From contig NZ_CP042911.1 of assembly GCF_008065095.1 (NCBI RefSeq), positions 5,490,001 through 5,522,000 on the forward strand: 32,000 nucleotides of DNA, given 5' to 3'. The position numbers and the translations under genes were made by a program. Shown in pieces: positions 336 to 20,494 of the stretch (the stretch's first letter is position 1; every line of letters starts with the position of its first letter). The notes under the pieces are model-generated. The model was not told where the DNA came from and did not search any database. It saw only the letters and a list, made by a program, of their open reading frames with translations. Origin of the DNA: Gemmata obscuriglobus (GTDB lineage Bacteria; Planctomycetota; Planctomycetia; Gemmatales; Gemmataceae).

Positions 336-693
336 TCGATGCCCTCGGCGGTTCCGAGGTGGCACGCTCAGCATCGCGGCTCCGCGGAAGCCCGCCCACC
401 GTCGCGGCCGAGCGGAGCACCACCGACCCACCCGCCGTGTCCCGGCCCATTGGAGGCTGGCACCAACCGCACCTGGCGGCGACGAGCCGCGCCAACCACC
501 AGCGGGCGCCACGCGGAGCACCACCGACCCGAACCACCGTGTCCCCACGCGCCGCCGGCCACGCGCACCCGCACCTCGCGGCGGCGAGCCGCGCCAGACA
601 CGACCGGCACCCCGCGGAACCCGACACAAGGGTTTCACCACCGCGGACCACACGCCTCGCACCGCCGCACGCGCACTCATGCACGCGATGGTT
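336..693 (-). repeat. ORF-less cassette body, subfamily 1, 358 nt (2 core hairpins)
   Basis: Sub-repeats of ~101-102 nt; hand count of T is 28/358 on the plus strand; no conserved frame. Confidence 0.65.
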
Positions 694-784
694 GCCGAAC
701 GAACAGCTCACCTGCACCGCCATCATACCGTCAGCGGTGCGTCACAAACCCGATGGCGGTGTCAGGTGCAGCGCCGGGTTCGGC
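694..784 (-). other. attC site
   Basis: gccgaac..agctcacctgcaccgcc-loop-ggcggtgTcaggtgCagc..gttcggc. Confidence 0.8.
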
Positions 785-1143
785 TCGCTCACGTCCGCGG
801 GTCCGGGGCACACGCCGAGCGCTGCGCATCCGCGGAAGCCCGCCCACCGGTGCGGCCACGCGGAGCACCGCCGACCCGGAGCACCGTGTCGCGACACATC
901 GGAGGCCACCCACCCACCGCCACCCGCGGCGATGAGCCGCGCCCGCAACCGATCGGTCTCGGCGGAGCACTACCGACCCGAACCGCCGTGTCCCCACCCG
1001 CACCCCGGCCACGCCCAACCGCACCTCGCGGCGGTGAGCCGCGCCCGCGACCACCGGCACCACGCGGAGCCCGATGCGCGGGGGTCACCGTCGCGGACCA
1101 CACGCCCAGCTCCGCCGCACGCGCATTCATGCACGCTCGGGTT
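785..1143 (-). repeat. ORF-less cassette body, subfamily 1, 359 nt
   Basis: sub-repeat family; near-duplicate of 19363-19721. Confidence 0.65.
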
Positions 1144-1235
1144 GCCGAACATACAGCTCACCTGCACCGCCATCATCGGATGAGCGGTGCGTCGCAATAT
1201 CGCATGGCGGTGTCAGGTGCAGCGCCGGGTTCGGC
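1144..1235 (-). other. attC site
   Basis: canonical arms and R boxes as at 694-784. Confidence 0.8.
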
Positions 1236-1590
1236 TCGCTGACCTCGGCGGTTCCGGGGCACGCGCCCCGCGCCGCGCGTCCGCGGAGCCCGCGGCACCG
1301 GTGCGGCTCTGCGGAGCAGCACCGACCCGACGCGCCGTGTCGCGGCCCACTGGAGGCCACCCACCACCGCCCCTCGCGGCGATGAGCCGCGCCAGCCCCG
1401 ACCCGTATCAGCGAAGCCAACACCGATACGCACTATCGTGTCCCCATGCACCGCTGGCCATGCCCAACCGCACCTCGCGGCGGCGAGCCGCGCCCGCCAC
1501 AGACCGGCACCACGCGGAGCACCACACGCGCCGTTCACCCACGCGGACCACACGCCTACCGCCGCACGCGCACCCCGCGCCCTTCTGGTG
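1236..1590 (-). repeat. ORF-less cassette body, subfamily 1, 355 nt
   Basis: sub-repeat family. Confidence 0.65.
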
Positions 1591-1680
1591 GCCGAACAAT
1601 GAGCTCACCTGCACCGCCTGGGTGACGTGAGCACCACAACTATGGCCGATGGCGGTGTCAGGTGCAGCGCCGGGTTCGGC
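1591..1680 (-). other. attC site
   Basis: canonical arms and R boxes. Confidence 0.8.
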
Positions 1681-1688
1681 CTCGGCCC

Positions 1689-2030
1689 TCACGCGATCAA
1701 CCGGTGCCGTTGGCTCACTATCTGCTCGAACACAGACCAGCCATGCCCCTCGACGAGTCGGGTGAGCGCCTCGGCCGATGTCCGCACGGGATCATAGCGG
1801 ACCTGGACCCACACCACGGTGTACACGCCTCCTGTGACGGCCGCCAACTTGTCCCCATCGCACAGTTCGTCCGCCAACTGGCCACGGCTCTTAATGACCG
1901 TCAGAGAGTACCGAACAGCGTCGCCGTGGGACTCGGCGAACGCTGCGAACAGGAACTCAGCCCCGGCGAGGCTCGCAGCGAGGTCGCCAAGGTTCCGAAC
2001 GTCTACGCAGTTGAGAAGGCCAAGCGCCAT
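1689..2030 (-). CDS. Cassette-encoded hypothetical protein (113 aa)
   Basis: Internal ATG (MALGLLNCVD...) of track ORF 1689..2237. Normal amino-acid composition. GAGGG 7 nt upstream of the ATG. Stop lies 8 nt from the attC at 1591-1680. Confidence 0.6.
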   Translation of the reverse strand: MALGLLNCVDVRNLGDLAASLAGAEFLFAAFAESHGDAVRYSLTVIKSRGQLADELCDGDKLAAVTGGVYTVVWVQVRYDPVRTSAEALTRLVEGHGWSVFEQIVSQRHRLIA

Positions 2031-2046
2031 CCGAAGCCCTCGGTTG

Positions 2047-2199
2047 GCCGAACCAGGAGCTGAGCTGCAAGCCGCCCCTCTCAGGGCGGTCTCCCCTTGC
2101 TCCCGCGACGGCTGGTCAGCTCCAGCGGGGGGTTCGGCCGACGGCCGCCTCCTTCCGCCAGAGGATGAGTGAGCGTTGCAGCTCAGCTCCTGGTTCGGC
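2047..2199 (-). other. Alternative 153-nt palindromic attC-like site (copy 1 of 3)
   Basis: Perfect 24-bp terminal inverted repeat gccgaaccaggagctgagctgcaa / ttgcagctcagctcctggttcggc. It has the same R boxes as the attC sites, and an internal gttcggc at 2132-2138. Confidence 0.5.
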
Positions 2200-2372
2200 C
2201 GCCGCCGGATGAGCTCAGCCCACCGGGGACATCGCACGGCGGGAGATCACCATGCGACCTCAGGCCGCTCGGATCGGCGGGCCCTCGTCGGTCGCCTTCA
2301 CCAGGGGGGAGGTGGCGACAACCTTACGACCGCCCGCCGATCCGCGGCGCTTGCAACCACCTCACGGCGGCG
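2200..2372 (-). repeat. 173-nt ORF-less hairpin cassette body (copy 1 of 3)
   Basis: Closing stem cgccgccg (2200-2207) / cggcggcg (2365-2372). Inner 17-bp stem 2264-2282 / 2332-2348. No ORF conserved beyond the module. Confidence 0.55.
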
Positions 2373-2463
2373 GCCGAACAAATAGCTCACCTGCACCGCC
2401 ACATCCCGAGCAGCGATGCGTCATAAATCAGCGGGCGGTGTCAGGTGCAGCGCCGGGTTCGGC
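2373..2463 (-). other. attC site
   Basis: canonical arms and R boxes. Confidence 0.8.
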
Positions 2464-2921
2464 TCGCTGACCTCTGCGGTTCCGGGGCACGCGCCCCGCA
2501 CCGCGCATCCGCGGAGCCCGGGCCACCGGTGCGGGCAGGCGGAGCACCACCGACCCGAACCGCCGTGTCCCGGCCCACCGAGGGCCGCCCACCACCGCAC
2601 CTCGCGGCGACGAGCCGCGCCGACCACACCCGGGCACTACGCGGAGCACCACCGACACGCACCGCCGTGTCGCGGCTCACTGGAGGCCGCCCACCACCGC
2701 CACTCGCGGCGATGAGCCGCGCCCGTTACCACCGGCACCACGCGGAGCACCACCGACCCGCAATCACCGTGTCCGCACCCGCTCCCGGCCACGCCCACCC
2801 ACCACTCGCGGCGGTGAGCCGCGCCCGTCGCACTCGGGCACCACGCGGAGCCCGACACTCGCCGTTTACCACCGCGGACCACACGTTCAGCGCCGCACGC
2901 GCACTCATGCACGCGATGGTT
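2464..2921 (-). repeat. ORF-less cassette body, subfamily 1, long form 458 nt (3 core hairpins)
   Basis: sub-repeat family with one extra ~101-nt unit. Confidence 0.65.
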
Positions 2922-3034
2922 GCCGAACGATGAAGCTCACCGGCCCGGCCGCGACACCCGCGGCCTGAACGACAAACGGATGAGCACTGAAAAACCGGGC
3001 AGATGGCCGGGTCCGGTGCAGCGCCGGGTTCGGC
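2922..3034 (-). other. attC site (L-stem variant)
   Basis: gctcaccggcccggcc pairs with ggccgggTccggtgCagc: compensated changes, with the same two bulged bases. Confidence 0.75.
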
Positions 3035-3074
3035 GTGACTCTGCTGCACAATCAGTTGCGCGCGACGCCGATAC

Positions 3075-3479
3075 TCACCACTCTCGCCATTCCTCCGTGA
3101 TGTCATGCACGCTCGAAACCAGCCCGGCTCGTTGTGCCGCAGCAATGATTAACTCGCAGAGCTGCTCACGCTGGTCGGTCTCGATGAGAGAGCCATCGCA
3201 TCGGTCGTTCAACTTGTTCAGCTTGATGACCGCCGTCTTCACAGCCTTGAGGATGGCCTCGTTCTTCTTGGTTTCCGGCACTCCCTCCAGCGCGGCAAGC
3301 AACTCATCGACGATCTTTGCACACCTGTCGATGTCGGCCTGCGTGTACCCCGCGTCGAAATCCTCGTCGAAGTCCGGGTCGGCCTCGCTCTCGGCCGCGC
3401 CGAACTTCATGTAACTGACCATGCCGTCAATGGCAGCCTTCCGAAGCCGGAGGAGGTCTTGCTTGGTGGGCTTCGCCAT
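3075..3479 (-). CDS. Cassette-encoded hypothetical acidic protein (134 aa)
   Basis: Track ORF with an ATG start. Balanced, lower-GC composition unlike its surroundings. AGAGGG leader directly after the R' box. Confidence 0.7.
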   Translation of the reverse strand: MAKPTKQDLLRLRKAAIDGMVSYMKFGAAESEADPDFDEDFDAGYTQADIDRCAKIVDELLAALEGVPETKKNEAILKAVKTAVIKLNKLNDRCDGSLIETDQREQLCELIIAAAQRAGLVSSVHDITEEWREW

Positions 3480-3495
3480 CCGTGAACCCTCTTGT

Positions 3496-3586
3496 GCCGA
3501 ACATAAAGCTCACCTGCACCGCCATGATGCAGGCCGCAATGCGTTACAGAGCAGCCGGCGGTGTCAGGTGCAGCGCCGGGTTCGGC
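3496..3586 (-). other. attC site
   Basis: canonical arms and R boxes. Confidence 0.8.
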
Positions 3587-3942
3587 TCAATGCCCTCGGC
3601 GGTTCCGGGCGCGCTCAGTGTCGCGCATCTGCGGATGCCCGCGGCACCGGTGCGGCCGAGCGGAGCACCACCGACCCGCACCACCGTATCCCGACCCATC
3701 GGAGGCCGCCCAACACCGCACCTCGCGGCGATGAGCCGCGCCCACCACCGGCGGGCGCCACGCGGAGCACCACCGACCCGAACCGCCGTGTCCCACGATA
3801 CCACCAGCCACGCCCAACCGCAGCTCGCGGCGATGAGCCGCGCCCGCCCCGACCGGCACCACGCGGAGCACGACGCACGGGGTTCACCCACGCGGACCAT
3901 ACCGTCAGCGCCGCCGCACGGGCGATCATGCACGCGATGGTT
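3587..3942 (-). repeat. ORF-less cassette body, subfamily 1, 356 nt
   Basis: sub-repeat family. Confidence 0.65.
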
Positions 3943-4032
3943 GCCGAACATAAAGCTCACCTGCACCGCCCGTCCCGAGGAGCGATGCGTCACAAGTCAG
4001 CCGGCGGTGTCAGGTGCAGCGCCGGGTTCAGC
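3943..4032 (-). other. attC site
   Basis: canonical arms; R'' variant gttcagc. Confidence 0.75.
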
Positions 4033-4390
4033 TCGCTTACCTCGGCGGTTCCGGGCCTCACGCTGAGCGCCGCGCATCCGCTGTGCGCGTGCCACCAATG
4101 CGAGCGTGCGGAGCACCACCGATCCGACGTACCGTGCCGCGGCCCACCGGAGGCCGGCACCAACCGCCACCCGCGGCGACGAGCCGCGCCAGCCCTGATC
4201 GGCACCACGCGGAGCCCCACCGACTCGCGCCACCGTGTCCCCACTCACTGCCCGCCACGCCCAACCGCACCTCGCGGCGATGAGCCGCGCCGGCCACTCG
4301 CGGGCACCACGCGGAGCCCGACACGCACTGTTCACCTTTGCGGACCATACGTTCAGCGCCGCCGCACGCGCGATCGAGCGCCTTGGGGTT
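4033..4390 (-). repeat. ORF-less cassette body, subfamily 1, 358 nt
   Basis: sub-repeat family; duplicate of 14675-15032. Confidence 0.65.
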
Positions 4391-4481
4391 GCCGAACGTA
4401 AAGCTCACCTGCACCGCCATCACCGGATGAGCGATGCGCTCCTGATCAGCCGGCGGTGTCAGGTGCAGCGCCGGGTTCGGC
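4391..4481 (-). other. attC site
   Basis: canonical arms and R boxes. Confidence 0.8.
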
Positions 4482-4814
4482 TCGCTCACATCCGCGCCGC
4501 GCATCCGCGGATGCCCGCCCACCGGTGCGACCGGGCGGAGCACCACCGAACCACGGCGCCGTGTCCCGACACATCGGGGGCCACCCACCACCGCACCTCG
4601 CGGCGACGAGCCGCGCCGCCCCCCCCCGGGCACCACGCGGAGCGCCACCGACCCGAACCGCCGTGTCCCACGACACCGCCGGCCACGCTCACCGCAAGCT
4701 CGCGGCGACGAGCCGCGCCCGCCACCGCCGGCACCACGCGGAGCACCACACGCGCCGTTCACCCACGCGGACCACACACCCACCGCCGCACGCGCGCTCC
4801 TGCACGCGAGGGCG
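4482..4814 (-). repeat. ORF-less cassette body, subfamily 1 with shortened attC-proximal block, 333 nt
   Basis: sub-repeat family. Confidence 0.65.
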
Positions 4815-4904
4815 GCCGAACAAATAGCTCACCGGCCGCGGTGTGAGCGACACGGTCTACAAACAGCGCATTATACAGCGGTCCGGTGCAGCGCCCGGTT
4901 CGGC
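4815..4904 (-). other. attC site (L-stem variant)
   Basis: gctcaccggccgc pairs with gcggTccggtgCagc. Confidence 0.75.
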
Positions 4905-5234
4905 TTCTGCGCGGGCATGTGCGGTTCCGCGGAGCCCGCGCCCGCGTCGCGGTTCCGCCACCGACACGCGCCACCGGGCCGCGGCACACCGGTGGCCACC
5001 CACCACCGCACCTCGCGGCGGTGAGCCGCGCCACCCACCCACGGGCCACACGCGAAGCCACCACTGACACGCACCACCGTGTCCCCACGCGCTGCCGGCC
5101 ACGCCCACTCGCACCTCGCGGCGGTGAGCCGCGCCCGCACCCACGGGCACCACGCGGAGCCCGACGCGCGCGGTTCACCCACGCGGACCACACGCCCACC
5201 ACCGCCGCACGTGCGCTCACGGCACGCGATGGTA
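4905..5234 (-). repeat. ORF-less cassette body, subfamily 2 (starts ttctgcgc), 330 nt
   Basis: sub-repeat family. Confidence 0.65.
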
Positions 5235-5324
5235 GCCGAACAAACAGCTCACCTGCACCGCCCGTCCCGATGAGCGATGCCTCCCGAATCAGCCGGCGGT
5301 GTCAGGTGCAGCGCCGGGTTCGGC
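5235..5324 (-). other. attC site
   Basis: canonical; identical to 10990-11079. Confidence 0.8.
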
Positions 5325-5661
5325 TTCTGCGCCCACCGTCGCGGTTCCGCGGAGCCCGCGCCCGCGCCGCGCATCCGCGGAGCCACCACCGACCCGCACC
5401 ACCGTGCCGCGGCACACCGGTGGCCGCCCACCACCGACACCCGCGGCGGTGAGCCGCGCCCGCCAACCACGGGCACCACGCGGAGCACCACCGACCCGCA
5501 CCACCGTGTCCCCACCCACACCGGGCCACGACCACCCGCACCTCGCGGCGGCGAGCCGCGCCAACCACCAGCAGGCCACACGCGGAGCCCGACACCCGGG
5601 GTTCACCCACGCGGACCACACGCCCACTACCGCCGCACGCGCGCTCCTGCACGCGATGGTT
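5325..5661 (-). repeat. ORF-less cassette body, subfamily 2, 337 nt
   Basis: sub-repeat family; identical to 11080-11416. Confidence 0.65.
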
Positions 5662-5752
5662 GCCGAACATAAAGCTCACCTGCACCGCCATCACCGGATG
5701 AGCGGTGCGCCCCCAATCAGCCGGCGGTGTCAGGTGCAGCGCCGGGTTCGGC
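5662..5752 (-). other. attC site
   Basis: canonical; same loop as 7571-7661 and 11417-11507. Confidence 0.8.
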
Positions 5753-6213
5753 TCCCTGACCACCGCGGTTCGGGGGCACACGCCGAGCACCGCGGCTCCG
5801 TGGATGCCCGCGGCACCGGTGCGGCCCTGCGGAGCATCACCGACTCCGCGCCCCGTGTCCCGGCCCACCGAGGGCCACCCACCACCGACACCTCGCGGCG
5901 GTGAGCCGCGCCCGCCACCAACGGCGCCACGCGGAGCACCACCGACACGACCCGCCGTGTCCCGGCACACCGGAGGCCACGCCCACCGCCACACGCGGCG
6001 ACGAGCCGCGCCAACCACCCACGGGCACCACGCGGAGCGCCACCGACCCGCACCACCGTGTCCCCACCCGCACCCGGCCACGCCCAACCGCCACTCGCGG
6101 CGGCGAGCCGCGCCAGACACCCACGAGCACCACGCGGAGCCCGGCGCGCGGGCGTCACCCACGCGGACCACACGCCCAGCACCACCGCACGGGCGCTCGC
6201 GCGGCTTTGGGTG
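5753..6213 (-). repeat. ORF-less cassette body, subfamily 1, long form 461 nt
   Basis: sub-repeat family. Confidence 0.65.
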
Positions 6214-6303
6214 GCCGAACGAACAGCTCACCTGCACCGCCAGGATGAAGTGAGCATCACAACTGCGGCCGATGGCGGTGTCAGGTGCAGCGCCGGGTTC
6301 GGC
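6214..6303 (-). other. attC site
   Basis: canonical arms and R boxes. Confidence 0.8.
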
Positions 6304-6638
6304 TTCTGCGCTGGCATGTGCGGTTCCGCGGAGCCCGCGCTTGCACCGCGCATCCGCGGAGCCACCACCGACCCGCACCACCATGCCGCGGCACACCGGG
6401 GGCCACCCACCACGGCACCGCGCGGCGATGAGCCGCGCCGCCCACCGACCGGTATCGGCGGAGCACCACCGATTCGACGCGCCGTGTCCCCACGCGCCTC
6501 CGCCCACGCCCAACCGCACCTCGCGGCGATGAGCCGCGCCAGACACGACCGGCACCACGCGGAGCACCACACGCGAGGTTCACCCATGCGGACCACACGC
6601 TCAGCGCCGCCGCACGCGCGCTCCAGAACGCGAGGGTG
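6304..6638 (-). repeat. ORF-less cassette body, subfamily 2, 335 nt
   Basis: sub-repeat family. Confidence 0.65.
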
Positions 6639-6729
6639 GCCGAACGAACAGCTCACCTGCACCGCCACCACCGGATGAGGGGTGCGTCACAAACCCGCGG
6701 GCGGTGTCAGGTGCAGCGCCGGGTTCGGC
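6639..6729 (-). other. attC site
   Basis: canonical arms and R boxes. Confidence 0.8.
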
Positions 6730-7060
6730 TTCTGCGCTGGCATTTGCGGTTCCGCGGAGCCCGCACCCGCACCGCGCATCCGCGGAGCCACCACCGACAC
6801 GCACCACCGTGCCGCGGCACATCGGGGGCCACCCAACACGGCACCTCGCGGCGATGAGCCGCGCCGACCACCGACCGGTCTCGGCGGAGCGCCACCGACC
6901 CGAACGGCCGTGTCCCCACGCGCCCCCGGCCACGCCCAACCGCAACTCGCGGCGGTGAGCCGCGCCAACCACCGACCGGCAGCACGCGGAGCCACCACCG
7001 TCTGGTGCCCCGCGGACCACACGCACGCGCGCCGCACGCGCACTCATGCACGCGAGGGTG
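6730..7060 (-). repeat. ORF-less cassette body, subfamily 2, 331 nt
   Basis: sub-repeat family. Confidence 0.65.
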
Positions 7061-7570: not shown

Positions 7571-7661
7571 GCCGAACATAAAGCTCACCTGCACCGCCAT
7601 CACCGGATGAGCGGTGCGCCCCCAATCAGCCGGCGGTGTCAGGTGCAGCGCCGGGTTCGGC
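7571..7661 (-). other. attC site
   Basis: canonical; contains the stop codon of the SUKH ORF. Confidence 0.8.
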
Positions 7662-8075
7662 GTTTGGGGATAACCCGGCGGCCAGGAACGCGGGGAACGA
7701 AGGGGCCATCTCGTGGATGCCGCCAAAGTCGTGATCCTCGACCAGCACTCGCCCGGACGAGAGCTCGATGCCGAACGGGTTGCCGCCGCCATCCCAACCG
7801 ATGATGAACACTCCTCGCATGTGCCAGAACTCGTTGTCCGCTCGGAACTGGCGGTGCGAATCGGCCAACTCGGGCAGCCCGTCGATCCACTCGCCGTCAC
7901 CGCCCACGCGCCCGCCGCACACCGTCAGGTACTCGCGGAACGCTGGCGGGATCGTCCCGAACTCGACCTCGAACGCCCGCAGGTCGCCCTCGGCGGCCGG
8001 CGGGTGGCGTTCCTCCTCAGGGCAGGCGTGCCACGCCGCGACAAGGAGTTGCCGCAGTCGCTCGTTCACATGCAA
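7626..8075 (-). CDS. SMI1/KNR4 (SUKH-1) family protein, copy 1 of 3
   Basis: Motifs IPPAFREYLTVCGG and FIIGWDGGGNPFGIE are typical of SMI1_KNR4. The start is TTG at 8075, or more likely GTG at 8069 (GAGGG 7 nt upstream). The stop lies inside the attC loop. Confidence 0.8.
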   Translation of the reverse strand: MHVNERLRQLLVAAWHACPEEERHPPAAEGDLRAFEVEFGTIPPAFREYLTVCGGRVGGDGEWIDGLPELADSHRQFRADNEFWHMRGVFIIGWDGGGNPFGIELSSGRVLVEDHDFGGIHEMAPSFPAFLAAGLSPNAEPGAAPDTAG

Positions 8076-8085
8076 GCCCTCTGTG

Positions 8086-8176
8086 GCCGAACATAAAGCT
8101 CACCTGCACCGCCATCATCGGATGAGCGGTGCGTTCCGGATCAGCCGGCGGTGTCAGGTGCAGCGCCGGGTTCGGC
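8086..8176 (-). other. attC site
   Basis: canonical arms and R boxes. Confidence 0.8.
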
Positions 8177-8531
8177 TCGCTGACCTCGGCGGTTCCGGGC
8201 GACCCGCCTCGCACCGCGGCTCCGCAGAGCCCGGGCCACCGGTGCGGGCGTGCGGAGCACCGACCCGATGCGCCGTGTCGCGGCACACCGGAGGCCGCGT
8301 ACCACCGCCACACGCGGCGACGAGCCGCGCCCGCCACCGGCGGGCGCCACGCGGAGCACCACCGATCCGAACCGCCGTGTCCCCATGCGCGGCTGGCCGC
8401 GCCCAACCGCACCTCGCGGCGACGAGCCGCGACCGCTACCCACGGCACCACGCGGAGCACCACACGCACGGTTCACCCACGCGGACCACACGCCTCGCAC
8501 CGCCGCCCGCGTGTTCCTGAACGCCCGGGTG
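8177..8531 (-). repeat. ORF-less cassette body, subfamily 1, 355 nt
   Basis: sub-repeat family; hairpin spacing here is 102 nt. Confidence 0.6.
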
Positions 8532-9586: not shown

Positions 9587-9677
9587 GCCGAACAACAAGC
9601 TCACCTGCACCGCCATCATCGGACGAGCGGTGCGTCACAATACAGCGGGCGGTGTCAGGTGCAGCGCCGGGTTCGGC
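9587..9677 (-). other. attC site
   Basis: canonical arms and R boxes. Confidence 0.8.
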
Positions 9678-10036
9678 TCGCTGCCGTCCGCGGTTCCGGG
9701 CGACACGCTCCGCGCCGCGCATCCGCGGAGCCCGGGCCACCGGTGCGACCGGGCGGAGCACCACCGACTCCGCGCGCCGTGTCCCGGCCCACCGGAGGCC
9801 ACCCACCACCGCCACACGCGGCGGTGAGCCGCGCCGACCACCGGCGGGCGCCACGCGGAGCACCACCGACCCGCACCACCGTGTCCCTATCCGCACCGGG
9901 CCGCGCCCACCCGCACCTCGCGGCGACGAGCCGCGCCAGACCCAACCGGCACCACGCGAAGCCCCACTGCACCGTCTCACGCGCCGCGGACCACACGCAC
10001 ACCGCCGCCGCACGCGTGATCGAGCGCCTCGGGGTG
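9678..10036 (-). repeat. ORF-less cassette body, subfamily 1, 359 nt
   Basis: sub-repeat family. Confidence 0.65.
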
Positions 10037-10127
10037 GCCGAACAATGAGCTCACCTGCAACGCCATCACCGGATCAGCGGTGCGCCCCAAGTCAGATGGC
10101 GGTGTCAGGTGCAGCGCCGGGTTCGGC
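10037..10127 (-). other. attC site
   Basis: canonical arms and R boxes. Confidence 0.8.
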
Positions 10128-10485
10128 TCGCTCACGTCCGCGGTTCCGGGGCACACGCCCCACGCCGCGCATCCGCGGAGCCCGCCCACCGGTGCGGCCG
10201 AGCGGAGCCACCACCGACCCCACGCGCCGTGTCGCGGCACGCCGGAGGCCACCCACCACCGCACTTCGCGGCGACGAGCCGCGCCCGCCCTGACGCGCAC
10301 CACGCGGAGCACCACCGACCCGACCCGCCGTGTCCCCACGCACCGCCAGCCGCGCTCAACCGCACCTCGCGGCGGCGAGCCGCGCCAGACCCGACCGGCA
10401 CCACGCGGAGCCCGACACGCGAGATTCACTCACGCGGACCACACGCACACCACCGCCGCACGCGCGCTCCTGCACGCTCGGGCGT
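10128..10485 (-). repeat. ORF-less cassette body, subfamily 1, 358 nt
   Basis: sub-repeat family. Confidence 0.65.
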
Positions 10486-10989: not shown

Positions 10990-11079
10990 GCCGAACAAAC
11001 AGCTCACCTGCACCGCCCGTCCCGATGAGCGATGCCTCCCGAATCAGCCGGCGGTGTCAGGTGCAGCGCCGGGTTCGGC
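10990..11079 (-). other. attC site
   Basis: canonical; identical to 5235-5324. Confidence 0.8.
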
Positions 11080-11416
11080 TTCTGCGCCCACCGTCGCGGT
11101 TCCGCGGAGCCCGCGCCCGCGCCGCGCATCCGCGGAGCCACCACCGACCCGCACCACCGTGCCGCGGCACACCGGTGGCCGCCCACCACCGACACCCGCG
11201 GCGGTGAGCCGCGCCCGCCAACCACGGGCACCACGCGGAGCACCACCGACCCGCACCACCGTGTCCCCACCCACACCGGGCCACGACCACCCGCACCTCG
11301 CGGCGGCGAGCCGCGCCAACCACCAGCAGGCCACACGCGGAGCCCGACACCCGGGGTTCACCCACGCGGACCACACGCCCACTACCGCCGCACGCGCGCT
11401 CCTGCACGCGATGGTT
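11080..11416 (-). repeat. ORF-less cassette body, subfamily 2, 337 nt
   Basis: identical to 5325-5661. Confidence 0.65.
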
Positions 11417-11507
11417 GCCGAACATAAAGCTCACCTGCACCGCCATCACCGGATGAGCGGTGCGCCCCCAATCAGCCGGCGGTGTCAGGTGCAGCGCCGG
11501 GTTCGGC
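11417..11507 (-). other. attC site
   Basis: canonical; identical to 7571-7661. Confidence 0.8.
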
Positions 11508-11921
11508 GTTTGGGGATAACCCGGCGGCCAGGAACGCGGGGAACGAAGGGGCCATCTCGTGGATGCCGCCAAAGTCGTGATCCTCGACCAGCACTCGCCC
11601 GGACGAGAGCTCGATGCCGAACGGGTTGCCGCCGCCATCCCAACCGATGATGAACACTCCTCGCATGTGCCAGAACTCGTTGTCCGCTCGGAACTGGCGG
11701 TGCGAATCGGCCAACTCGGGCAGCCCGTCGATCCACTCGCCGTCACCGCCCACGCGCCCGCCGCACACCGTCAGGTACTCGCGGAACGCTGGCGGGATCG
11801 TCCCGAACTCGACCTCGAACGCCCGCAGGTCGCCCTCGGCGGCCGGCGGGTGGCGTTCCTCCTCAGGGCAGGCGTGCCACGCCGCGACAAGGAGTTGCCG
11901 CAGTCGCTCGTTCACATGCAA
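11472..11921 (-). CDS. SMI1/KNR4 (SUKH-1) family protein, copy 2 of 3
   Basis: All overlapping track ORFs translate identically to those at 7626-8096. Confidence 0.8.
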   Translation of the reverse strand: MHVNERLRQLLVAAWHACPEEERHPPAAEGDLRAFEVEFGTIPPAFREYLTVCGGRVGGDGEWIDGLPELADSHRQFRADNEFWHMRGVFIIGWDGGGNPFGIELSSGRVLVEDHDFGGIHEMAPSFPAFLAAGLSPNAEPGAAPDTAG

Positions 11922-11931
11922 GCCCTCTGTG

Positions 11932-12022
11932 GCCGAACATAAAGCTCACCTGCACCGCCATCATCGGACAAGCGATGCGTTCCAGATCAGCGGGCGGTGT
12001 CAGGTGCAGCGCCGGGTTCGGC
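11932..12022 (-). other. attC site
   Basis: canonical arms and R boxes. Confidence 0.8.
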
Positions 12023-12052
12023 TTGCCTTCGGGCACTGTGACTCCGTAAGCA

Positions 12053-12472: not shown

Positions 12473-12563
12473 GCCGAACAATGAGCTCACCTGCACCGCC
12501 ATCACCGGATGAGCGGTGCGTCCCAAGTCCGATGGCGGTGTCAGGTGCAGCGCTGGGTTCGGC
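12473..12563 (-). other. attC site
   Basis: canonical arms (spacer gctgg). Confidence 0.8.
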
Positions 12564-12819
12564 TCGATGCCCTCGGCGTTTCCGGGTTGCACGCCGAGCG
12601 CCGCGCCTCCGCGGAGCCCGCGGCACCGGTGCGTGCGGGCGGAGCATCACCGCCTCGATGCGCCGTGTCGCGGCCCACCGAGGGCCACCCACCACTGCAC
12701 CTCGCGGCGATGAGCCGCGCCAGCACCGACCGGCACCAGGCGGAGCCCGACACACGGGTTTCACCACCGCGGGCCACACGCCTACTGCCGCCGCACGCGC
12801 GCTCCTGCGACCTCGGGTT
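12564..12819 (-). repeat. ORF-less cassette body, subfamily 1, short form 256 nt (1 core hairpin)
   Basis: sub-repeat family lacking one ~101-nt unit. Confidence 0.65.
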
Positions 12820-13342: not shown

Positions 13343-13433
13343 GCCGAACATAAAGCTCACCTGCACCGCCATGATGCAAGCCGCAATGCGTTACAGAGCA
13401 GCGGGCGGTGTCAGGTGCAGCGCCGGGTTCGGC
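13343..13433 (-). other. attC site
   Basis: canonical arms and R boxes. Confidence 0.8.
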
Positions 13434-13789
13434 TCGCTCACGTCCGCGGTTCCGGGTCACGCGCCGAGCGATGCGGCTCCGCGGAGCCCGGGCCACCGGT
13501 GCGACCCGGCGGAGCACCACCGGCTCCCCGCGCCGTGTCCCGGCACACCGAGGGCCACCCACCACCGCACCTCGCGGCGATGAGCCGCGCCCACCACCCA
13601 CGGGCACCACGCGGAGCACCACCGACCCGAACCACCGTGTCCCACGATACCACCAGCCACGCTCACCGCAAGCTCGCGGCGACGAGCCGCGCCCGTCGCA
13701 CTCGGGCACCACGCGGAGCCCGACACGTAGGGTTCACCCACGCGGACCACACGCACACCGCCGCACGCGCGATCCAGAACGCGAGGGTG
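13434..13789 (-). repeat. ORF-less cassette body, subfamily 1, 356 nt
   Basis: sub-repeat family; its 5' boundary joins the alternative attC-like site. Confidence 0.65.
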
Positions 13790-13942
13790 GCCGAACCAGG
13801 AGCTGAGCTGCAAGCCGCCCCTCTCAGGGCGGTCTCCCCTTGCTCCCGCGACGGCTGGTCAGCTCCAGCGGGGGGTTCGGCCGACGGCCGCCTCCTTCCG
13901 CCAGAGGATGAGTGAGCGTTGCAGCTCAGCTCCTGGTTCGGC
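13790..13942 (-). other. Alternative 153-nt palindromic attC-like site (copy 2 of 3)
   Basis: same 24-bp terminal inverted repeat as 2047-2199. Confidence 0.5.
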
Positions 13943-14115
13943 CGCCGCCGGATGAGCTCAGCCCACCGGGGACATCGCACGGCGGGAGATCACCATGCGA
14001 CCTCAGGCCGCTCGGATCGGCGGGCCCTCGTCGGTCGCCTTCACCAGGGGGGAGGTGGCGACAACCTTACGACCGCCCGCCGATCCGCGGCGCTTGCAAC
14101 CACCTCACGGCGGCG
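13943..14115 (-). repeat. 173-nt ORF-less hairpin cassette body (copy 2 of 3)
   Basis: same sequence as 2200-2372. Confidence 0.55.
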
Positions 14116-14583: not shown

Positions 14584-14674
14584 GCCGAACAGAAAGCTCA
14601 CCTGCACCGCCATGATACAGTGAGCGGTGCGTCCCGAATCAGATGGCGGTGTCAGGTGCAGCGCCGGGTTCGGC
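14584..14674 (-). other. attC site
   Basis: canonical arms and R boxes. Confidence 0.8.
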
Positions 14675-15032
14675 TCGCTTACCTCGGCGGTTCCGGGCCT
14701 CACGCTGAGCGCCGCGCATCCGCTGTGCGCGTGCCACCAATGCGAGCGTGCGGAGCACCACCGATCCGACGTACCGTGCCGCGGCCCACCGGAGGCCGGC
14801 ACCAACCGCCACCCGCGGCGACGAGCCGCGCCAGCCCTGATCGGCACCACGCGGAGCCCCACCGACTCGCGCCACCGTGTCCCCACTCACTGCCCGCCAC
14901 GCCCAACCGCACCTCGCGGCGATGAGCCGCGCCGGCCACTCGCGGGCACCACGCGGAGCCCGACACGCACTGTTCACCTTTGCGGACCATACGTTCAGCG
15001 CCGCCGCACGCGCGATCGAGCGCCTTGGGGTT
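14675..15032 (-). repeat. ORF-less cassette body, subfamily 1, 358 nt
   Basis: duplicate of 4033-4390. Confidence 0.65.
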
Positions 15033-15123
15033 GCCGAACATAAAGCTCACCTGCACCGCCCTCACCGGATGAGCGGTGCGTCCCGAATCAGCCGGCGGTG
15101 TCAGGTGCAGCGCCGGGTTCGGC
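15033..15123 (-). other. attC site
   Basis: canonical; contains the stop of SUKH copy 3. Confidence 0.8.
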
Positions 15124-15537
15124 GTTTGGGGATAACCCGGCGGCCAGGAACGCGGGGAACGAAGGGGCCATCTCGTGGATGCCGCCAAAGTCGTGATCCT
15201 CGACCAGCACTCGCCCGGACGAGAGCTCGATGCCGAACGGGTTGCCGCCGCCATCCCAACCGATGATGAACACTCCTCGCATGTGCCAGAACTCGTTGTC
15301 CGCTCGGAACTGGCGGTGCGAATCGGCCAACTCGGGCAGCCCGTCGATCCACTCGCCGTCACCGCCCACGCGCCCGCCGCACACCGTCAGGTACTCGCGG
15401 AACGCTGGCGGGATCGTCCCGAACTCGACCTCGAACGCCCGCAGGTCGCCCTCGGCGGCCGGCGGGTGGCGTTCCTCCTCAGGGCAGGCGTGCCACGCCG
15501 CGACAAGGAGTTGCCGCAGTCGCTCGTTCACATGCAA
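15088..15537 (-). CDS. SMI1/KNR4 (SUKH-1) family protein, copy 3 of 3
   Basis: Translations are identical to copies 1 and 2 in all frames. Confidence 0.8.
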   Translation of the reverse strand: MHVNERLRQLLVAAWHACPEEERHPPAAEGDLRAFEVEFGTIPPAFREYLTVCGGRVGGDGEWIDGLPELADSHRQFRADNEFWHMRGVFIIGWDGGGNPFGIELSSGRVLVEDHDFGGIHEMAPSFPAFLAAGLSPNAEPGAAPDTAG

Positions 15538-15547: not shown

Positions 15548-15638
15548 GCCGAACATAAAGCTCACCTGCACCGCCATCATCGGATCAGCAGTGCGTCACA
15601 ATGCAGCGGGCGGTGTCAGGTGCAGCGCCGGGTTCGGC
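15548..15638 (-). other. attC site
   Basis: canonical arms and R boxes. Confidence 0.8.
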
Positions 15639-15893
15639 TCGCTCACGTCCGCGGTTCCGGGCGGCACGCCCCGCACCGCGGCTCCGCGGAGCCCGGGCCA
15701 CCCACGGACCACACGCGGAGCACCACCGACTCCGCGCGCCGTGTCCCCACGCGCCTCCGGCCACGCCCAACCGTACCTCGCGGCGATGAGCCGCGCCAGC
15801 TACCACGGGCACCACGCGGAGCGCCACACCGCCGCTTGATGCCCTGCGGACCACACGCCTACCGCCGCACGCACACTCATGCACGCGAGGGCG
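15639..15893 (-). repeat. ORF-less cassette body, subfamily 1, short form 255 nt
   Basis: sub-repeat family. Confidence 0.65.
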
Positions 15894-15984
15894 GCCGAAC
15901 GAACAGCTCACCTGCACCGCCATCACCGGATGAGCGGTGCGTCACAAATCAGCGGGCGGTGTCAGGTGCAGCGCCGGGTTCGGC
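15894..15984 (-). other. attC site
   Basis: canonical arms and R boxes. Confidence 0.8.
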
Positions 15985-16355
15985 TCGCGGCCGTCCGCGG
16001 TTCCGGGCCACACGCTCGGCGCCGCGCATCTGCGGATGCCCGCGGCACCGGTGCGGCCCTGCGGAGCATCACCGACTCCGCGCGCCGTGTCGCGGCCCAC
16101 CGTGGCCACCCACCACGGCCACCCGCGGCGGTGAGCCGCGCCCGCCACCCACGGGCACCACGCGGAGCACCACCGACCCGCACCGCCGTGTCCCGATGCA
16201 CCACCCGCCACGCTCACCGCAAGCTCGCGGCGGTGAGCCGCGCCACACACCCACGGGCACCACGCGGAGCCCGACGCGGAGCCCGACGCGCGGGGTTCAC
16301 CCACGCGGACCACGCGCCCACCACCGCCGCACGCGCCCTCATGCACGGTCGGGTG
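15985..16355 (-). repeat. ORF-less cassette body, subfamily 1, 371 nt
   Basis: sub-repeat family. Confidence 0.65.
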
Positions 16356-16445
16356 GCCGAACGAACAGCTCACCTGCACCGCCAGGGTGAAGTGAGCACC
16401 ACAACTATGGCCGATGGCGGTGTCAGGTGCAGCGCCGGGTTCGGC
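16356..16445 (-). other. attC site
   Basis: canonical arms and R boxes. Confidence 0.8.
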
Positions 16446-16804
16446 GCGCTCACGTCCGCGGTTCCGAGCCATGCGCCCAGCACCGCGCATCCGCGGAGCC
16501 CGTGCCACCGGTGCGGGCGGGCGGAGCACCACCGGCCCCACGCACCGTGTCGCGGCACACCGGAGGCCACCCACCACTGGACCGCGCGGCGACGAGCCGC
16601 GCCCGCCACCCACCGGCACCACGCGGAGCACCACCGACCCGATGCACCGTGTCCCCTCGCGCCGCCGGCCACGCCCACCGCCACTCGCGGCGACGAGCCG
16701 CGCGGGCCACCGGCGGGGCACCACGCGGAGCCCGATACACCGGCGCCACCACCGCGGACCACACGCCCCGCACCGCCGCCCCCGCGCTCATGCACGCGAT
16801 GGTG
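16446..16804 (-). repeat. ORF-less cassette body, subfamily 1, 359 nt
   Basis: sub-repeat family. Confidence 0.65.
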
Positions 16805-17254: not shown

Positions 17255-17274
17255 CTGAAGTCTGCGCCTCTGTA

Positions 17275-17367
17275 GCCGAACAATGAAGCTCACCGGCTTG
17301 CCCCCGCTCAGGTGAGTTCCGCGGATGTAATCAGCAGGGGCAAGTCCGGTGCAGCGCCGGGTTCGGC
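17275..17367 (-). other. attC site (L-stem variant)
   Basis: gctcaccggcttgcccc pairs with ggggcaagTccggtgCagc. Confidence 0.75.
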
Positions 17368-17380
17368 GGGCCCACACCCA

Positions 17381-17797
17381 CTACCGGACCTGTACGACAA
17401 TCGCGGCCGCGAACCCGACTAGGGTGCCCCCGACCGCGAGCCCGCCCCACGTCCGGAATGCCTCACCGGGGGTCCACAGGACGCCACACTCGGGCCGCCC
17501 GGGCGGGTAGCGGATGGATGCGACCTCCCCGACCGGCCACTCATCGGCCGAGGCGGGCAGCGCCTCGACCTCGACCGACCGCCCCTCCGTCTCCAACCGG
17601 ACGACCGCGGCCCGCCCGCCCCACCACGAGGCCCGCGTCGCCCCGGTCACCGTCCCGGTCGCCCGGACCCCGCGGCGGGCGCGCACCCACCGGGGGATCA
17701 GTGGCAGGGAAAGTACGATGTTGACCGCCCCGAGGGCGGCGCAGAACAGTCCGGTCAGCACAATGTACCCTCGGCGGTGCGCACCCAACTGTAGCAC
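17381..17797 (-). CDS. DUF3592-like two-TM membrane protein (~138 aa; start uncertain)
   Basis: N-terminal TM (YIVLTGLFCAALGAVNIVLSLPLI), central ATGTV...VASIRYPPGRPE beta-rich segment, and C-terminal TM. There is no ATG inside the cassette, so GTG at 17797 is assumed. Confidence 0.5.
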   Translation of the reverse strand: MLQLGAHRRGYIVLTGLFCAALGAVNIVLSLPLIPRWVRARRGVRATGTVTGATRASWWGGRAAVVRLETEGRSVEVEALPASADEWPVGEVASIRYPPGRPECGVLWTPGEAFRTWGGLAVGGTLVGFAAAIVVQVR

Positions 17798-17824
17798 GCC
17801 GCCCCGGCCCCCTTCGCTTTCCCC

Positions 17825-17916
17825 GCCGAACATACAGCTCACCTGCACCGCCATCACCGGATGAGCGGTGCGTTCCCGAATCAGCCGGCGGTGTCAGGTG
17901 CAGCGCCGGGTTCGGC
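17825..17916 (-). other. attC site
   Basis: canonical arms and R boxes. Confidence 0.8.
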
Positions 17917-18272
17917 TCGCTGCCCTCGGCGGTTCCGGGCGACACGCTCCGCACCGCGGATCCGCAGAGCCCGGGCCACCGGTGCGGCCGAGCGGAGCAC
18001 CACCGACCCGACGCGCCGTGTCGCGGCCCAGCGGAGGCCGGCACCGTCGCACCGCGCGGCGACGAGCCGCGCCGCCCACCCACGGCACCACGCGGAGCAC
18101 CACCAACCCGAACCGCCGTGTCCCCATGCGCGGCTGGCCGCGCTCACCGCAAGCTCGCGGCGATGAGCCGCGCCCGCGACCACCGGCATCATGCGGAGCC
18201 CGACACGCGGAGTTCACCCATGCGGACCACACGCCCAGCACCGCCGCCCGCGCGATCATGCACGCGATGGCG
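17917..18272 (-). repeat. ORF-less cassette body, subfamily 1, 356 nt
   Basis: sub-repeat family. Confidence 0.65.
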
Positions 18273-18363
18273 GCCGAACATAAAGCTCACCTGCACCGCC
18301 ATGATGCAGGATGCGGTGCGTCCCGAATCAGCGGGCGGTGTCAGGTGCAGCGCCGGGTTCGGC
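18273..18363 (-). other. attC site
   Basis: canonical arms and R boxes. Confidence 0.8.
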
Positions 18364-18725
18364 TCGCTCACGTCCGCGGTTCCGGGCCACACGCCGAGCG
18401 CCACGCATCCGCGGAAGCCCGCCCACCGTCGCGGCCGAGCGGAGCACCACCGACCCCACCCGCCGTGTCCCGGCCCACCGCAGGCCACCCACCACCGCAC
18501 CTCGCGGCGATGAGCCGCGCCCGCCACCGGCGGGGGCCACGCGGAGCACCACCGACCCGAACCACCGTGCCGTCGCACACCGGAGGCCACGCACCACTGC
18601 ACCTCGCGGCGACGAGCCGCGCCCACCACCGACCGGCACCACGCGGAGCACTACCGACACGCGGGGGCACCCACGCGGACAACACGCCCCGCACCGCCGC
18701 ACGCGCGATCGAGCGGCTTGGGGTG
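18364..18725 (-). repeat. ORF-less cassette body, subfamily 1, 362 nt
   Basis: sub-repeat family. Confidence 0.65.
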
Positions 18726-18816
18726 GCCGAACGAACAGCTCACCTGCACCGCCCCTTCCCAGGGAGCGGTGCGTCCCGAATCAGCGGGCGGTGTCAGGTG
18801 CAGCGCCGGGTTCGGC
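18726..18816 (-). other. attC site
   Basis: canonical arms and R boxes. Confidence 0.8.
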
Positions 18817-19271
18817 TCACTGACCTCCGCGGTTCCGGGCGACACGCGCCGCACCGCGGCTCCGCGGAGCCCGTGCCACCGGTGCGGCCGGGCGGAGCAC
18901 CCCCAACCCGATGCGCCGTGTCGCGACACATCGGAGGCCACCCACCACCGCCACCCGCGGCGATGAGCCGCGCCCGCCACCCACGGGCGCCACGCGGAGC
19001 ACCACCGACACGAACCGCCGTGTCCCCACCCGCGCCCGGCCACGCCCAACCACACCTCGCGGCGGCGAGCCGCGCCAGACCCGATCGGCACCACGCGGAG
19101 CGCCACCGAACCGACACGCCGTGTCCGCACCCGCCACCGGCCGCGCCCACCGCACCTCGCGGCGACGAGCCGCGCCACACACCCACGGGCACCACGCGGA
19201 GCCCGACCCTCGGGATTCACCTTCGCGGACCACACGCCCACCGCCGCACGCGCGATCGAGCAACTCGGGTG
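18817..19271 (-). repeat. ORF-less cassette body, subfamily 1, long form 455 nt
   Basis: sub-repeat family. Confidence 0.65.
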
Positions 19272-19362
19272 GCCGAACGAACAGCTCACCTGCACCGCCA
19301 TCATACAGTCAGCGGTGCGTCACAAACCCGATGGCGGTGTCAGGTGCAGCGCCGGGTTCGGC
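19272..19362 (-). other. attC site
   Basis: canonical arms and R boxes. Confidence 0.8.
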
Positions 19363-19721
19363 TCGCTCACGTCCGCGGGTCCGGGGCACACGCCGAGCGC
19401 TGCGCATCCGCGGAAGCCCGCCCACCGGTGCGGGCGGGCGGAGCACCACCGACCCCGCGCGCCGTGTCGCGACACATCGGAGGCCACCCACCCACCGCCA
19501 CCCGCGGCGATGAGCCGCGCCCGCAACCGATCGGTCTCGGCGGAGCACTACCGACCCGAACCGCCGTGTCCCCACCCGCACCCCGGCCACGCCCAACCGC
19601 ACCTCGCGGCGGTGAGCCGCGCCCGCGACCACCGGCACCACGCGGAGCCCGATGCGCGGGGGTCACCGTCGCGGACCACACGCCCAGCTCCGCCGCACGC
19701 GCATTCATGCACGCTCGGGTT
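19363..19721 (-). repeat. ORF-less cassette body, subfamily 1, 359 nt
   Basis: near-duplicate of 785-1143. Confidence 0.65.
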
Positions 19722-19874
19722 GCCGAACCAGGAGCTGAGCTGCAAGCCGCCCCTCTCAGGACGGTCTCCCCTTGCTCCCGCGGCGGCTTGTCAGCTCCAG
19801 CGGGGGGTTCGGCCGACGGCCGCCTCCTTCCGCCAGAGGGTGAGTGAGCGTTGCAGCTCAGCTCCTGGTTCGGC
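19722..19874 (-). other. Alternative 153-nt palindromic attC-like site (copy 3 of 3)
   Basis: same 24-bp terminal inverted repeat as 2047-2199. Confidence 0.5.
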
Positions 19875-20047
19875 CGCCGCCGGATGAGCTCAGCCCACCG
19901 GGGACATCGCACGGCGGGAGAACACCATGCGACCTCGGGCCGCTCGGATCGGCGGGCCCTCGCCGGTCGCCTTCACCAGGGGGGAGGTGGCGACAACCTT
20001 ACGACCGCCCGCCGATCCGCGGCGCTTGCAACCACCTCACGGCGGCG
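19875..20047 (-). repeat. 173-nt ORF-less hairpin cassette body (copy 3 of 3)
   Basis: same as 2200-2372 with a few substitutions. Confidence 0.55.
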
Positions 20048-20138
20048 GCCGAACGAACAGCTCACCTGCACCGCCATCACACGATGAGCGGTGCGTCACA
20101 ATACAGCGGGCGGTGTCAGGTGCAGCGCCGGGTTCGGC
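20048..20138 (-). other. attC site
   Basis: canonical arms and R boxes. Confidence 0.8.
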
Positions 20139-20494
20139 TCGCTGCCGTCCGCGGTTCCGGGCGACACGCCGAGCGCCGCGCATCTGCGGATGCCCGCGGC
20201 ACCGGTGCGACCGGGCGGAGTGCTACCGACTCGATGCGCCGTGTCCCGGCCCATCGAGGGCCACGCCCACCGCTACACGCGGCGACGAGCCGCGCCCCTA
20301 CCCACGGGCACCACGCGGAGCGCCACCGACCCGAACCGCCGTGTCCCCACACACCGCCGGCCACGCCCAACCGCACCTCGCGGCGACGAGCCGCGCCAGC
20401 ACCGACCGGCACCACGCGAAGCCCGACACGCGAGACTCACCACCGCGGACCACACGCTCAGCGCCGCCGCACGCGCCCTCATGCCCTCGGGGTT
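20139..20494 (-). repeat. ORF-less cassette body, subfamily 1, 356 nt
   Basis: sub-repeat family. Confidence 0.65.

Follow-up and report, generated by a model that had tools for sequence, protein, structure and literature searches.

A GC-rich, modular family of gene-less cassettes in an attC array of Gemmata obscuriglobus

The attC array and its main cassette family

The stretch of DNA analyzed here, hereafter the window, comprises 32,000 nucleotides from Gemmata obscuriglobus (contig NZ_CP042911.1, positions 5,490,001–5,522,000); coordinates below are counted from its first base. An array of integron attC sites fills the left 20.6 kb of the window and runs on past its left end. Most of the cassettes in this array belong to a single paralogous family, whose bodies lie between attC sites and carry a common family core and no credible gene. 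Approximately 46 cassettes are located in the window. Twenty-eight of them (~61%) are family members, and the remaining 18 or so comprise 15 cassettes with a coding signature and three copies of a small cassette with a 173-bp body, so that the family outnumbers the coding cassettes (28 vs. 15), as originally predicted.

The array spans positions 245–20585 on the plus strand. A 27-nt pattern of the attC 3′ arm has 40 matches on this strand vs. 0 expected, and looser pattern matching yields 42 standard attC sites, 90–93 nt in length with one site of ~113 nt; along with three long variant sites of 153 nt, this makes 45 attC sites in total. Integron cassettes are recognized by attC sites that share a single orientation and contain an inverse-core and a core box (RYYYAAC ... 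GTTRRRY), and here the boxes GCCGAAC ... GTTCGGC are present at all 42 standard and 3 variant sites, always in one orientation. Folded as single-stranded DNA (ssDNA), attC forms an imperfect hairpin with a 7-bp R box, 5/5 unpaired spacers, a long L stem, and two extrahelical bases bulged on the plus-strand 3′ arm; its minimum free energy is −28.9 kcal/mol (z = −5.3, site 694–784). Extrahelical bases on an attC arm mark the bottom, recombined strand. The plus strand is thus the bottom strand, in agreement with the open reading frames (ORFs) of the coding cassettes, which are situated on the minus strand, begin just past one attC and finish at or inside the next, and whose GC-phase pattern is consistent with this orientation. 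Together, the bulged bases and the coding ORFs identify the minus strand as the sense strand of the cassettes, and one would hence look for the integrase gene intI on the right side of the array. We consider these elements to be, with high probability, true attC cassettes moved by an integrase.

A scan for family cores and modules identified 27 complete cassettes and one partial cassette cut by the window start, exactly the count given in the original prediction. All are oriented with the minus strand as sense and share one layout, which on the plus strand consists of an attC-proximal block, one to three tandem modules of 100–103 nt, and a distal block. There are 57 modules in total, with the core CGCGGCG-RY-GAGCCGCGC. 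This core contains a 6-bp inverted repeat with a 5-nt spacer, CGCGGC-GRYGA-GCCGCG, as at 1027–1044, and 55 of the 57 copies are exact. Direct repeats GCACCAC, 12 nt apart, are found at the 5′ and 3′ ends of the modules. The 29 module spacings within cassettes equal 102 nt in 16 cases and 101 nt in 10, the two values noted originally, but also 100 nt in two cases and 103 nt in one. The attC sites of the family are of the same type as those of the coding cassettes.

Single modules are found in the bodies 12564–12819 (attC 12473–12563; core at 12703) and 15639–15893 (attC 15548–15638; core at 15779), and three modules in 2464–2921 (attC 2373–2463; cores at 2603, 2705, and 2807), 5753–6213 (attC 5662–5752; cores at 5894, 5994, and 6096), and 18817–19271 (attC 18726–18816; cores at 18956, 19058, and 19158). 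All other members have two modules, including the partial body 1–244 (cores at 27 and 128), in which the distal block is present. From left to right, with the attC site in parentheses, these are 336–693 (its own site, 245–335), 785–1143 (694–784), 1236–1590 (1144–1235), 3587–3942 (3496–3586), 4033–4390 (3943–4032), and 4482–4814 (4391–4481), the latter with a short proximal block. They are followed by bodies of a "GCAGAA" subtype at 4905–5234 (4815–4904), 5325–5661 (5235–5324), 6304–6638 (6214–6303), and 6730–7060 (6639–6729), and then by 8177–8531 (8086–8176), 9678–10036 (9587–9677), 10128–10485 (10037–10127), 11080–11416 (10990–11079), 13434–13789 (13343–13433), 14675–15032 (14584–14674), 15985–16355 (15894–15984), which has a 12-nt internal duplication, 16446–16804 (16356–16445), 17917–18272 (17825–17916), 18364–18725 (18273–18363), 19363–19721 (19272–19362), and 20139–20494 (20048–20138), the second cassette from the right end of the array. 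The bodies 13434–13789 and 19363–19721 are each followed on the plus strand by a long variant attC (13790–13942 and 19722–19874, respectively).

Some of these bodies are near or exact copies of each other: 5325–5661 and 11080–11416 are exact duplicates, 4033–4390 is identical to 14675–15032, and 19363–19721 is 98% identical to 785–1143. At a larger scale, the region 5235–5752 recurs at 10990–11507 with 100% identity and 7571–8180 recurs at 11417–12026 with 99% identity; either region spans a single cassette, ends inside attC, and has different neighbors at its two locations. Duplicates beside new neighbors are what shuffling by an integrase predicts and are indirect evidence that the cassettes behave as independent mobile units, but coding cassettes show them equally. 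An independent assembly of the same species, the draft contig ABGO01000300 (locus L079), is identical where compared and has the same cassette layout; hence, the array is not an assembly artifact.

The family is not confined to the window. A second G. obscuriglobus array (locus L078) contains 10 family cassettes among 26 attC sites, and when 185,579 species genomes were scanned by pattern, the only true members were those of Gemmata algarum JC673, on eight small contigs, and of a metagenome-assembled genome (MAG) of Gemmata. Three of the 12 matches in the genome scan were chance occurrences inside coding sequence, all 64 of the 64 candidate loci in a metagenome scan were chance matches in GC-rich DNA, and a scan of viral contigs yielded no family members. 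At every locus found in the second array, in G. algarum, and in the MAG, the family cassettes are flanked by attC sites of the same type and share one orientation, so that the family is attC-bounded in related genomes as well. On a distance tree, copies of different species intermix, with a mean identity of 78.5%, and nearest neighbors frequently come from different species (83–88% identity). Given this intermixing, the family is an old, diversified pool common to the genus rather than the product of a single recent burst.

Coding potential and sequence constraint

The family bodies are markedly GC-rich, 76.7% vs. 66.8% for the coding cassettes and 66.9% for the flanking genes, and their plus strand has a strong asymmetry (15.6% A, 46.5% C, 30.2% G, 7.7% T) that is absent from the coding cassettes and the flanks. 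Mechanically called ORFs of 90–659 aa cover the family cassettes on both strands, because at ~77% GC, with 7.7% A and 15.6% T on the G-rich strand, stop codons are rare. The original designation of these cassettes as ORF-less therefore stands in that they have no credible gene, but such mechanical ORFs abound. By the same token, the family lies outside the operational definitions of gene-less cassettes, i.e., no ORF longer than 150 bp (Boucher et al., 2006) or 210 bp (Blanco et al., 2024). Some long ORFs extend through several cassettes together with their attC sites, e.g., 17868–19847 and 242–1183 on the plus strand and 5302–6570 on the minus strand. One GenBank "hypothetical protein," GobsT_46960 (659 aa), runs across four attC sites; comparable entries (GobsT_11270, 11520, 43780, and 43830) mark other arrays of G. 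obscuriglobus. Since stop codons are rare, cross-cassette ORFs such as GobsT_46960 are annotation artifacts.

The family is non-coding, and we hold this conclusion with considerable confidence. Only 5 of the 42 unique indel events have a length divisible by three, as do 11% of the indels counted pairwise, and the lengths of the family cassettes occupy all three residue classes modulo 3. Per-column variability of the modules has no three-base periodicity (phase means 0.63, 0.55, and 0.63) and no period-3 Fourier peak. The range of GC content across codon phases is 0.02–0.13 in the family, compared to 0.14–0.38 in the non-family cassette bodies and 0.15–0.44 in the flanking genes. One and the same stretch of bases changes its frame from copy to copy, giving GTRRFGSVVLRV in one and DTAVRVGSAPP / GDTAVRVGSAPP in another. 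No Pfam match was obtained for six long family translations from both strands. These tests bear out the original prediction of a non-coding family, and its examples of frame-switching peptides were reproduced. The ATG of the only candidate start, gtgcATGa, is present in approximately 10 of 25 complete copies; its frequent loss, noted earlier as a change to AGG, is real, but the other copies contain not only AGG but also TGG, CGATC, and further variants.

In the first 12–15 nt of the bodies beside attC, the block TCGCTSACSTCSGCGG (e.g., 785–799 and 1236–1250), most of the variation falls on every third base. On the plus strand, the changes are synonymous for SLTSAVPG, and the minus strand gives PGTA(D/E)VS running into attC. 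Positions 9 and 12 of the block are coupled, with G..C in nine copies, C..G in eight, and C..C in three. The possibility of a short conserved ORF beside attC was rejected, as frameshifting indels occur within ~60 nt and there is no start codon.

Constraint was assessed on a neighbor-joining tree of 92 distinct modules, collected by a core match with at most three mismatches, by counting parsimony changes at each site. Substitutions are distributed very unevenly, with a mean of 8.2 changes per site and an index of dispersion of 5.2; 0–1 changes were counted at 12 sites and at least 15 at 18 sites. In the core CGCGGC-GRYGA-GCCGCG, each position has undergone 0–3 changes, apart from the R and Y of the spacer with 14 and 20, respectively. 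A near-invariant 17-bp inverted repeat, CGCGGC-N5-GCCGCG, occurs once per module; as a DNA hairpin, it would be worth about −9 to −10 kcal/mol. Further conserved blocks of the module are GCGGAGCACCACCGAC, CCGTGTC, GGCC, and GGCACCAC. Such block-wise invariance among copies that are ~78% identical and come from different species indicates sequence-specific constraint on the family, a conclusion in which we have good confidence.

The rare substitutions in the palindrome arms (GAGCCGCG to GAGTCGCG; GTGTCGCGGCAC), observed, e.g., at the loci L078 and L010 and at 8313–8330 of the window, would produce G·T pairs on the plus strand, i.e., the attC bottom strand, and A·C mismatches on the minus strand. 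They hint, though weakly, at the bottom strand as the one that folds, if either does.

Several other identities of the modules were considered and rejected. A canonical G-quadruplex motif is present on the G-rich strand in only 8 of the 57 modules, and R-loop initiation zones were found in only 14 of the 27 cassettes. Local alignment of modules to attC is no better than that of shuffled sequences (p = 0.16–0.63), so that the modules do not appear to be degenerate attC sites, nor do they mimic attI, since an nhmmer comparison of the family with the DNA past the right boundary of the array gave no match.

Neighboring cassettes and the right end of the array

An immunity-type cassette of the SUKH-1 / SMI1_KNR4 type (Pfam, E = 6.5e-11) is present in three copies on the minus strand (7626–8075, 11472–11921, and 15088–15537), the cassette at 3075–3479 (minus strand) has a weak match to DUF5713, and a weak match to Imm1 was observed in the second array. 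Thus, the coding cassettes lean to toxin-immunity proteins.

The small cassette with the 173-bp body, which we denote X and which also appears to be gene-less, occurs at 2047–2372, 13790–14115, and 19722–20047. Each of its copies is preceded by the 153-nt variant attC, which has a perfect 24-bp outer stem (GCCGAACCAGGAGCTGAGCTGCAA / TTGCAGCTCAGCTCCTGGTTCGGC) with an attC-like 3′ end nested inside it.

On the right, the array is bounded by a GCCGAAC box at 20854–20860 (plus strand), followed by non-attC DNA and insertion sequence (IS) elements. No intI was found in the 11 kb to the right of this boundary, and none of the 19 ORFs there contains a tyrosine-recombinase domain; only IS630-like, UPF0236, and IS66 transposases were identified. 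A complete integron, with adjacent intI, attI, and cassette promoter (Pc), is therefore not contained in the window. Lacking an integrase, the array is operationally a cluster of attC sites without an integron integrase (CALIN), as defined by Cury et al. (2016; PMC4889954), or else an array severed from its intI by IS insertions.

A 14-nt direct repeat, GCGCAATAACACGG, is located beyond the array end at 20886 and 20986, its second copy overlapping the start of an IS630-like ORF; it could be a remnant of attI or an IS end. The IS nest itself extends from 20984 to 28254. The IS630-like ORF (20984–22033) is broken near its 3′ end by an inserted element that has perfect 24-nt terminal inverted repeats (22002–22025 / 23445–23468) and carries a UPF0236-like ORF. 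Pieces of the IS66 family are found at 23937–24821 and within a unit flanked by 72-nt inverted repeats (25238–28254).

Possible roles and related systems

We tentatively favor, at somewhat less than even confidence, an explanation in which these elements are gene-less integron cassettes that reside in a sedentary attC array of G. obscuriglobus and their modules serve as cis-acting recognition sites. On the sense strand, each cassette consists of a 5′ block, one to three tandem modules of 100–103 nt, a 3′ block, and the attC of ~91 nt that is standard in the species. Recombination at attC by an integron integrase, presumably acting in trans on the array, would carry, duplicate, and shuffle the family cassettes like any others, and spread of this kind may have produced the diversified copies now seen across several arrays and several Gemmata species. 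The cassettes yield no protein and adopt no RNA or ssDNA fold with thermodynamic or evolutionary support; what is kept are short sequence blocks, above all the 17-bp inverted repeat, whose spacer is free to vary. The modules could be bound by a host or integron-associated factor, either as duplex palindromes or as small hairpins of the attC bottom strand, so that an operator-like palindrome or a small hairpin would recur every ~102 bp. The cassettes would then act on the array itself, through expression, insulation, or recombination, and not via an encoded product. For the role of the modules as recognition sites, taken separately, our confidence is slightly lower still, and we regard it as possible rather than probable. 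A more far-reaching version, which we consider unlikely, is that the modules are dedicated cis sites read by a Gemmata protein by which the integron controls its own array, so that the family would form a functional class of its own beside gene cassettes and the AT-rich promoter cassettes. Control of the array by the modules may involve insulation or silencing of transcription, priming or stabilization of excised ssDNA cassette circles, or tuning of attC folding.

Repetitive extragenic palindromic sequences and bacterial interspersed mosaic elements (REP/BIME) are short GC-rich inverted repeats in many copies, with conserved stems, variable loops, and probable recognition by a protein. The Gemmata module palindromes resemble them in being short, GC-rich, and present in many copies, with a constant stem and a variable loop. 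In contrast to REP/BIME, they occur only inside attC-bounded cassettes in the array loci examined, are embedded in a 102-nt module, and have one orientation relative to attC.

Several considerations weigh against recognition sites. This role is deduced from conservation alone, and stems that never vary cannot separate a hairpin from a duplex palindrome or from some other constraint. Collection of the tree units by their cores somewhat inflates the apparent core conservation, although the core count of every cassette agrees exactly with the prediction from its length. Gene conversion among the paralogs could add to their homogeneity. Mobilization in trans is an assumption, made since there is no intI in the window. 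Finally, the family has leader-like 5′ ends and an ATG in ~40% of copies, and it may descend from a decayed gene.

The last point leads to the main rival, namely, that the family consists of selfish or neutral passenger cassettes, maybe derived from a decayed coding cassette; these small attC-bearing units would persist and multiply only through integrase-driven excision and re-insertion and through duplication, and would have no host function. An explanation of this type has been proposed for gene-less cassette families of Vibrio (Boucher et al., 2006; PMC1382264). It would account for the high copy number (28 of ~46 cassettes here, and copies in several arrays), for the restriction to a genus that shares a single attC type, and for the recent single-cassette duplicates. 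At their 5′ ends, the family members look like coding-cassette leaders, the ATG, where present, is at the canonical place, and in 9 of the 10 ATG-bearing copies the first ~25 codons are in frame. On the other hand, neutral decay does not predict uneven substitution with near-invariant blocks across species and among copies that are ~78% identical, and we know of no internal cassette sequence that is required for recombination by IntI. Moreover, recent duplication is no more common in the family than in other cassettes (SUKH-1 and X, three copies each), and the attC sites of the family offer no distinction from those of the coding cassettes. On balance, we consider passengers rather unlikely, though less so than any of the explanations discussed below.

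The Vibrio families are also the closest described parallel, so that the original view that the array matches no described system does not hold. Non-coding cassettes constitute 6–49% of Vibrio arrays and tend to be paralogous; the upper value comes from V. vulnificus CMCP6, in which one non-coding family, restricted to vibrios, has 45 copies (Boucher et al., 2006; PMC1382264). These families seem to be under purifying selection, and both a selfish nature and a promoter or RNA function have been proposed for them (PMC1382264). By its described features, the Gemmata family is similar: it is bounded by attC, gene-less, and highly paralogous, has close homologs only within its genus, is conserved lengthwise without a pattern of synonymous sites, and admits both selfish and promoter or RNA explanations. 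It differs in belonging to Planctomycetota, in being more GC-rich than its flank (76.7% vs. ~67%) instead of AT-rich, in having one to three tandem modules of ~102 nt, each with a near-invariant palindrome, and in its higher share of the array, ~61% in the window.

Promoter activity is the only function that has been demonstrated experimentally for gene-less cassette families, in Vibrio (Blanco et al., 2024; PMC11014356) and, as far as the account in PMC8876359 goes, for ORF-less promoter cassettes of Treponema (Tansirichaiya, 2019; PMC6557892). According to such an explanation, internal promoters of the family would drive neighboring cassettes far from Pc or silence them by antisense transcription. 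Like the promoter cassettes of Vibrionaceae and Treponema, as far as these have been described in the above sources, the Gemmata cassettes are gene-less, a few hundred bp long, and interspersed among coding cassettes in long arrays; action in cis on neighbors is plausible for them, and some of the promoter cassettes likewise seem to be derived from decayed genes. The sense strand has a conserved motif, GGAACCGC, near the 3′ end of the family and upstream of the following cassette. This motif may resemble the −35 element of extracytoplasmic function (ECF) sigma factors, but by inspection the distance past GGAAC is not that required for an ECF −10 element. More generally, there is no positionally conserved −10-like element, and the sole motif containing A and T, CATGA, is absent in more than half of the copies. 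Unlike known promoter cassettes, the family has no detectable sigma-70-like promoter (a consensus scan found 0 sites in the 20 kb on either strand), has ORFs longer than 210 bp, and is extremely GC-rich. The promoter activity of Vibrio cassettes is related to AT-richness (PMC11014356), whereas the Gemmata bodies have 76.7% GC and 7.7% A on the sense strand, so that a promoter role of the Vibrio type is probably not the explanation; we consider promoter cassettes in general improbable here.

The original prediction described the cassettes as structured and listed structured RNAs and ssDNA elements among their possible roles. The variants to be considered include a small RNA (sRNA), a protein sponge, an antitoxin RNA similar to those of type III systems, and a fold of the attC bottom strand. 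Each module has a GC-rich, hairpin-capable inverted repeat with a variable loop, and G·T pairing could accommodate the few stem variants only on the plus strand. The layout of tandem repeats is reminiscent of ToxI-type RNAs. Folding does not support such structures. For one representative cassette, the folds are less stable than those of dinucleotide-shuffled controls, whether it is treated as RNA (both strands) or as DNA (z = +1.0 to +1.7), and over 18 cassettes the mean z is −0.52 for the plus strand and +0.09 for the minus strand, indistinguishable from the coding cassettes. RNAalifold applied to 22 full-length copies gave unfavorable covariance terms on both strands (+0.95 and +0.75), and mutual information revealed no helix, the top pairs being adjacent columns or columns that distinguish two module subtypes. 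No Rfam family matched the window at the gathering threshold, and none matched positions 245–3034 (2.8 kb) at E ≤ 1. Only the module core recurs as an element capable of forming a hairpin; since its stem is invariant, it provides no information for or against pairing. Intrinsic terminators are not enriched, with three terminator-like sites vs. 6.6 expected, none of them in family cassettes. Thus, both the claim of structure and the corresponding listed roles are disfavored.

Two more specific candidates of this kind were rejected. In the proximal block, a few copies suggested a covarying helix in the form of an extended 14-nt palindrome around TCCGCGGA, but its symmetry is disrupted in most copies. 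A ToxI-like antitoxin RNA would agree with the tandem repeats; however, there is no adjacent gene, and no toxin-like domain was found among the scanned cassette ORFs. An integron-borne sRNA does exist in Xanthomonas, where the accounts of sRNA-Xcc1 describe it as single, symE-linked, and oriented against Pc (PMC8876359, PMC12444791). To the extent covered by these accounts, the Gemmata family resembles it in a non-coding cassette product and a high-GC host, but differs in having dozens of copies and, by the fold, covariance, and Rfam tests, no sign of a discrete or structured RNA. Altogether, a structured element seems even less probable than a promoter.

The remaining alternative, a protein family of Arg/Gly-rich (minus strand) or His/Pro-rich (plus strand) repeats of ~34 aa, could appeal to the long ORFs on both strands, to GenBank hypothetical proteins such as GobsT_46960, and to the 102-nt period, equal to 34 codons, but it is refuted for practical purposes, as 13 of the 29 module spacings are not divisible by three, indels and codon phases give no coding signal, the frame varies between copies with no conserved start and no Pfam match, and the annotated ORFs pass through attC sites and several cassettes.

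We found no description of this family in the literature on Gemmata integrons or repeats. The kind of element is already known from the gene-less families of Vibrio; the GC-rich, modular form seen in Gemmata is new. Gene-less cassettes, a phenomenon known for two decades, are an open problem in integron biology, making up as much as half of an array in Vibrio, and promoter activity, the sole role demonstrated for them, may in part be a by-product of AT-richness. The Gemmata family, with ~77% GC, no sigma-70-like signal, and dozens of diverged copies that have been kept across arrays and species with near-invariant blocks, is a natural counter-example and offers a clean GC-rich test case for roles beyond promoters. 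On the practical side, genome annotations call spurious proteins across its cassettes and attC sites, the 659-aa GobsT_46960 being an example. If the conserved blocks prove functional, the study of integrons would extend into Planctomycetota, and non-coding cassettes can do more than supply promoters.

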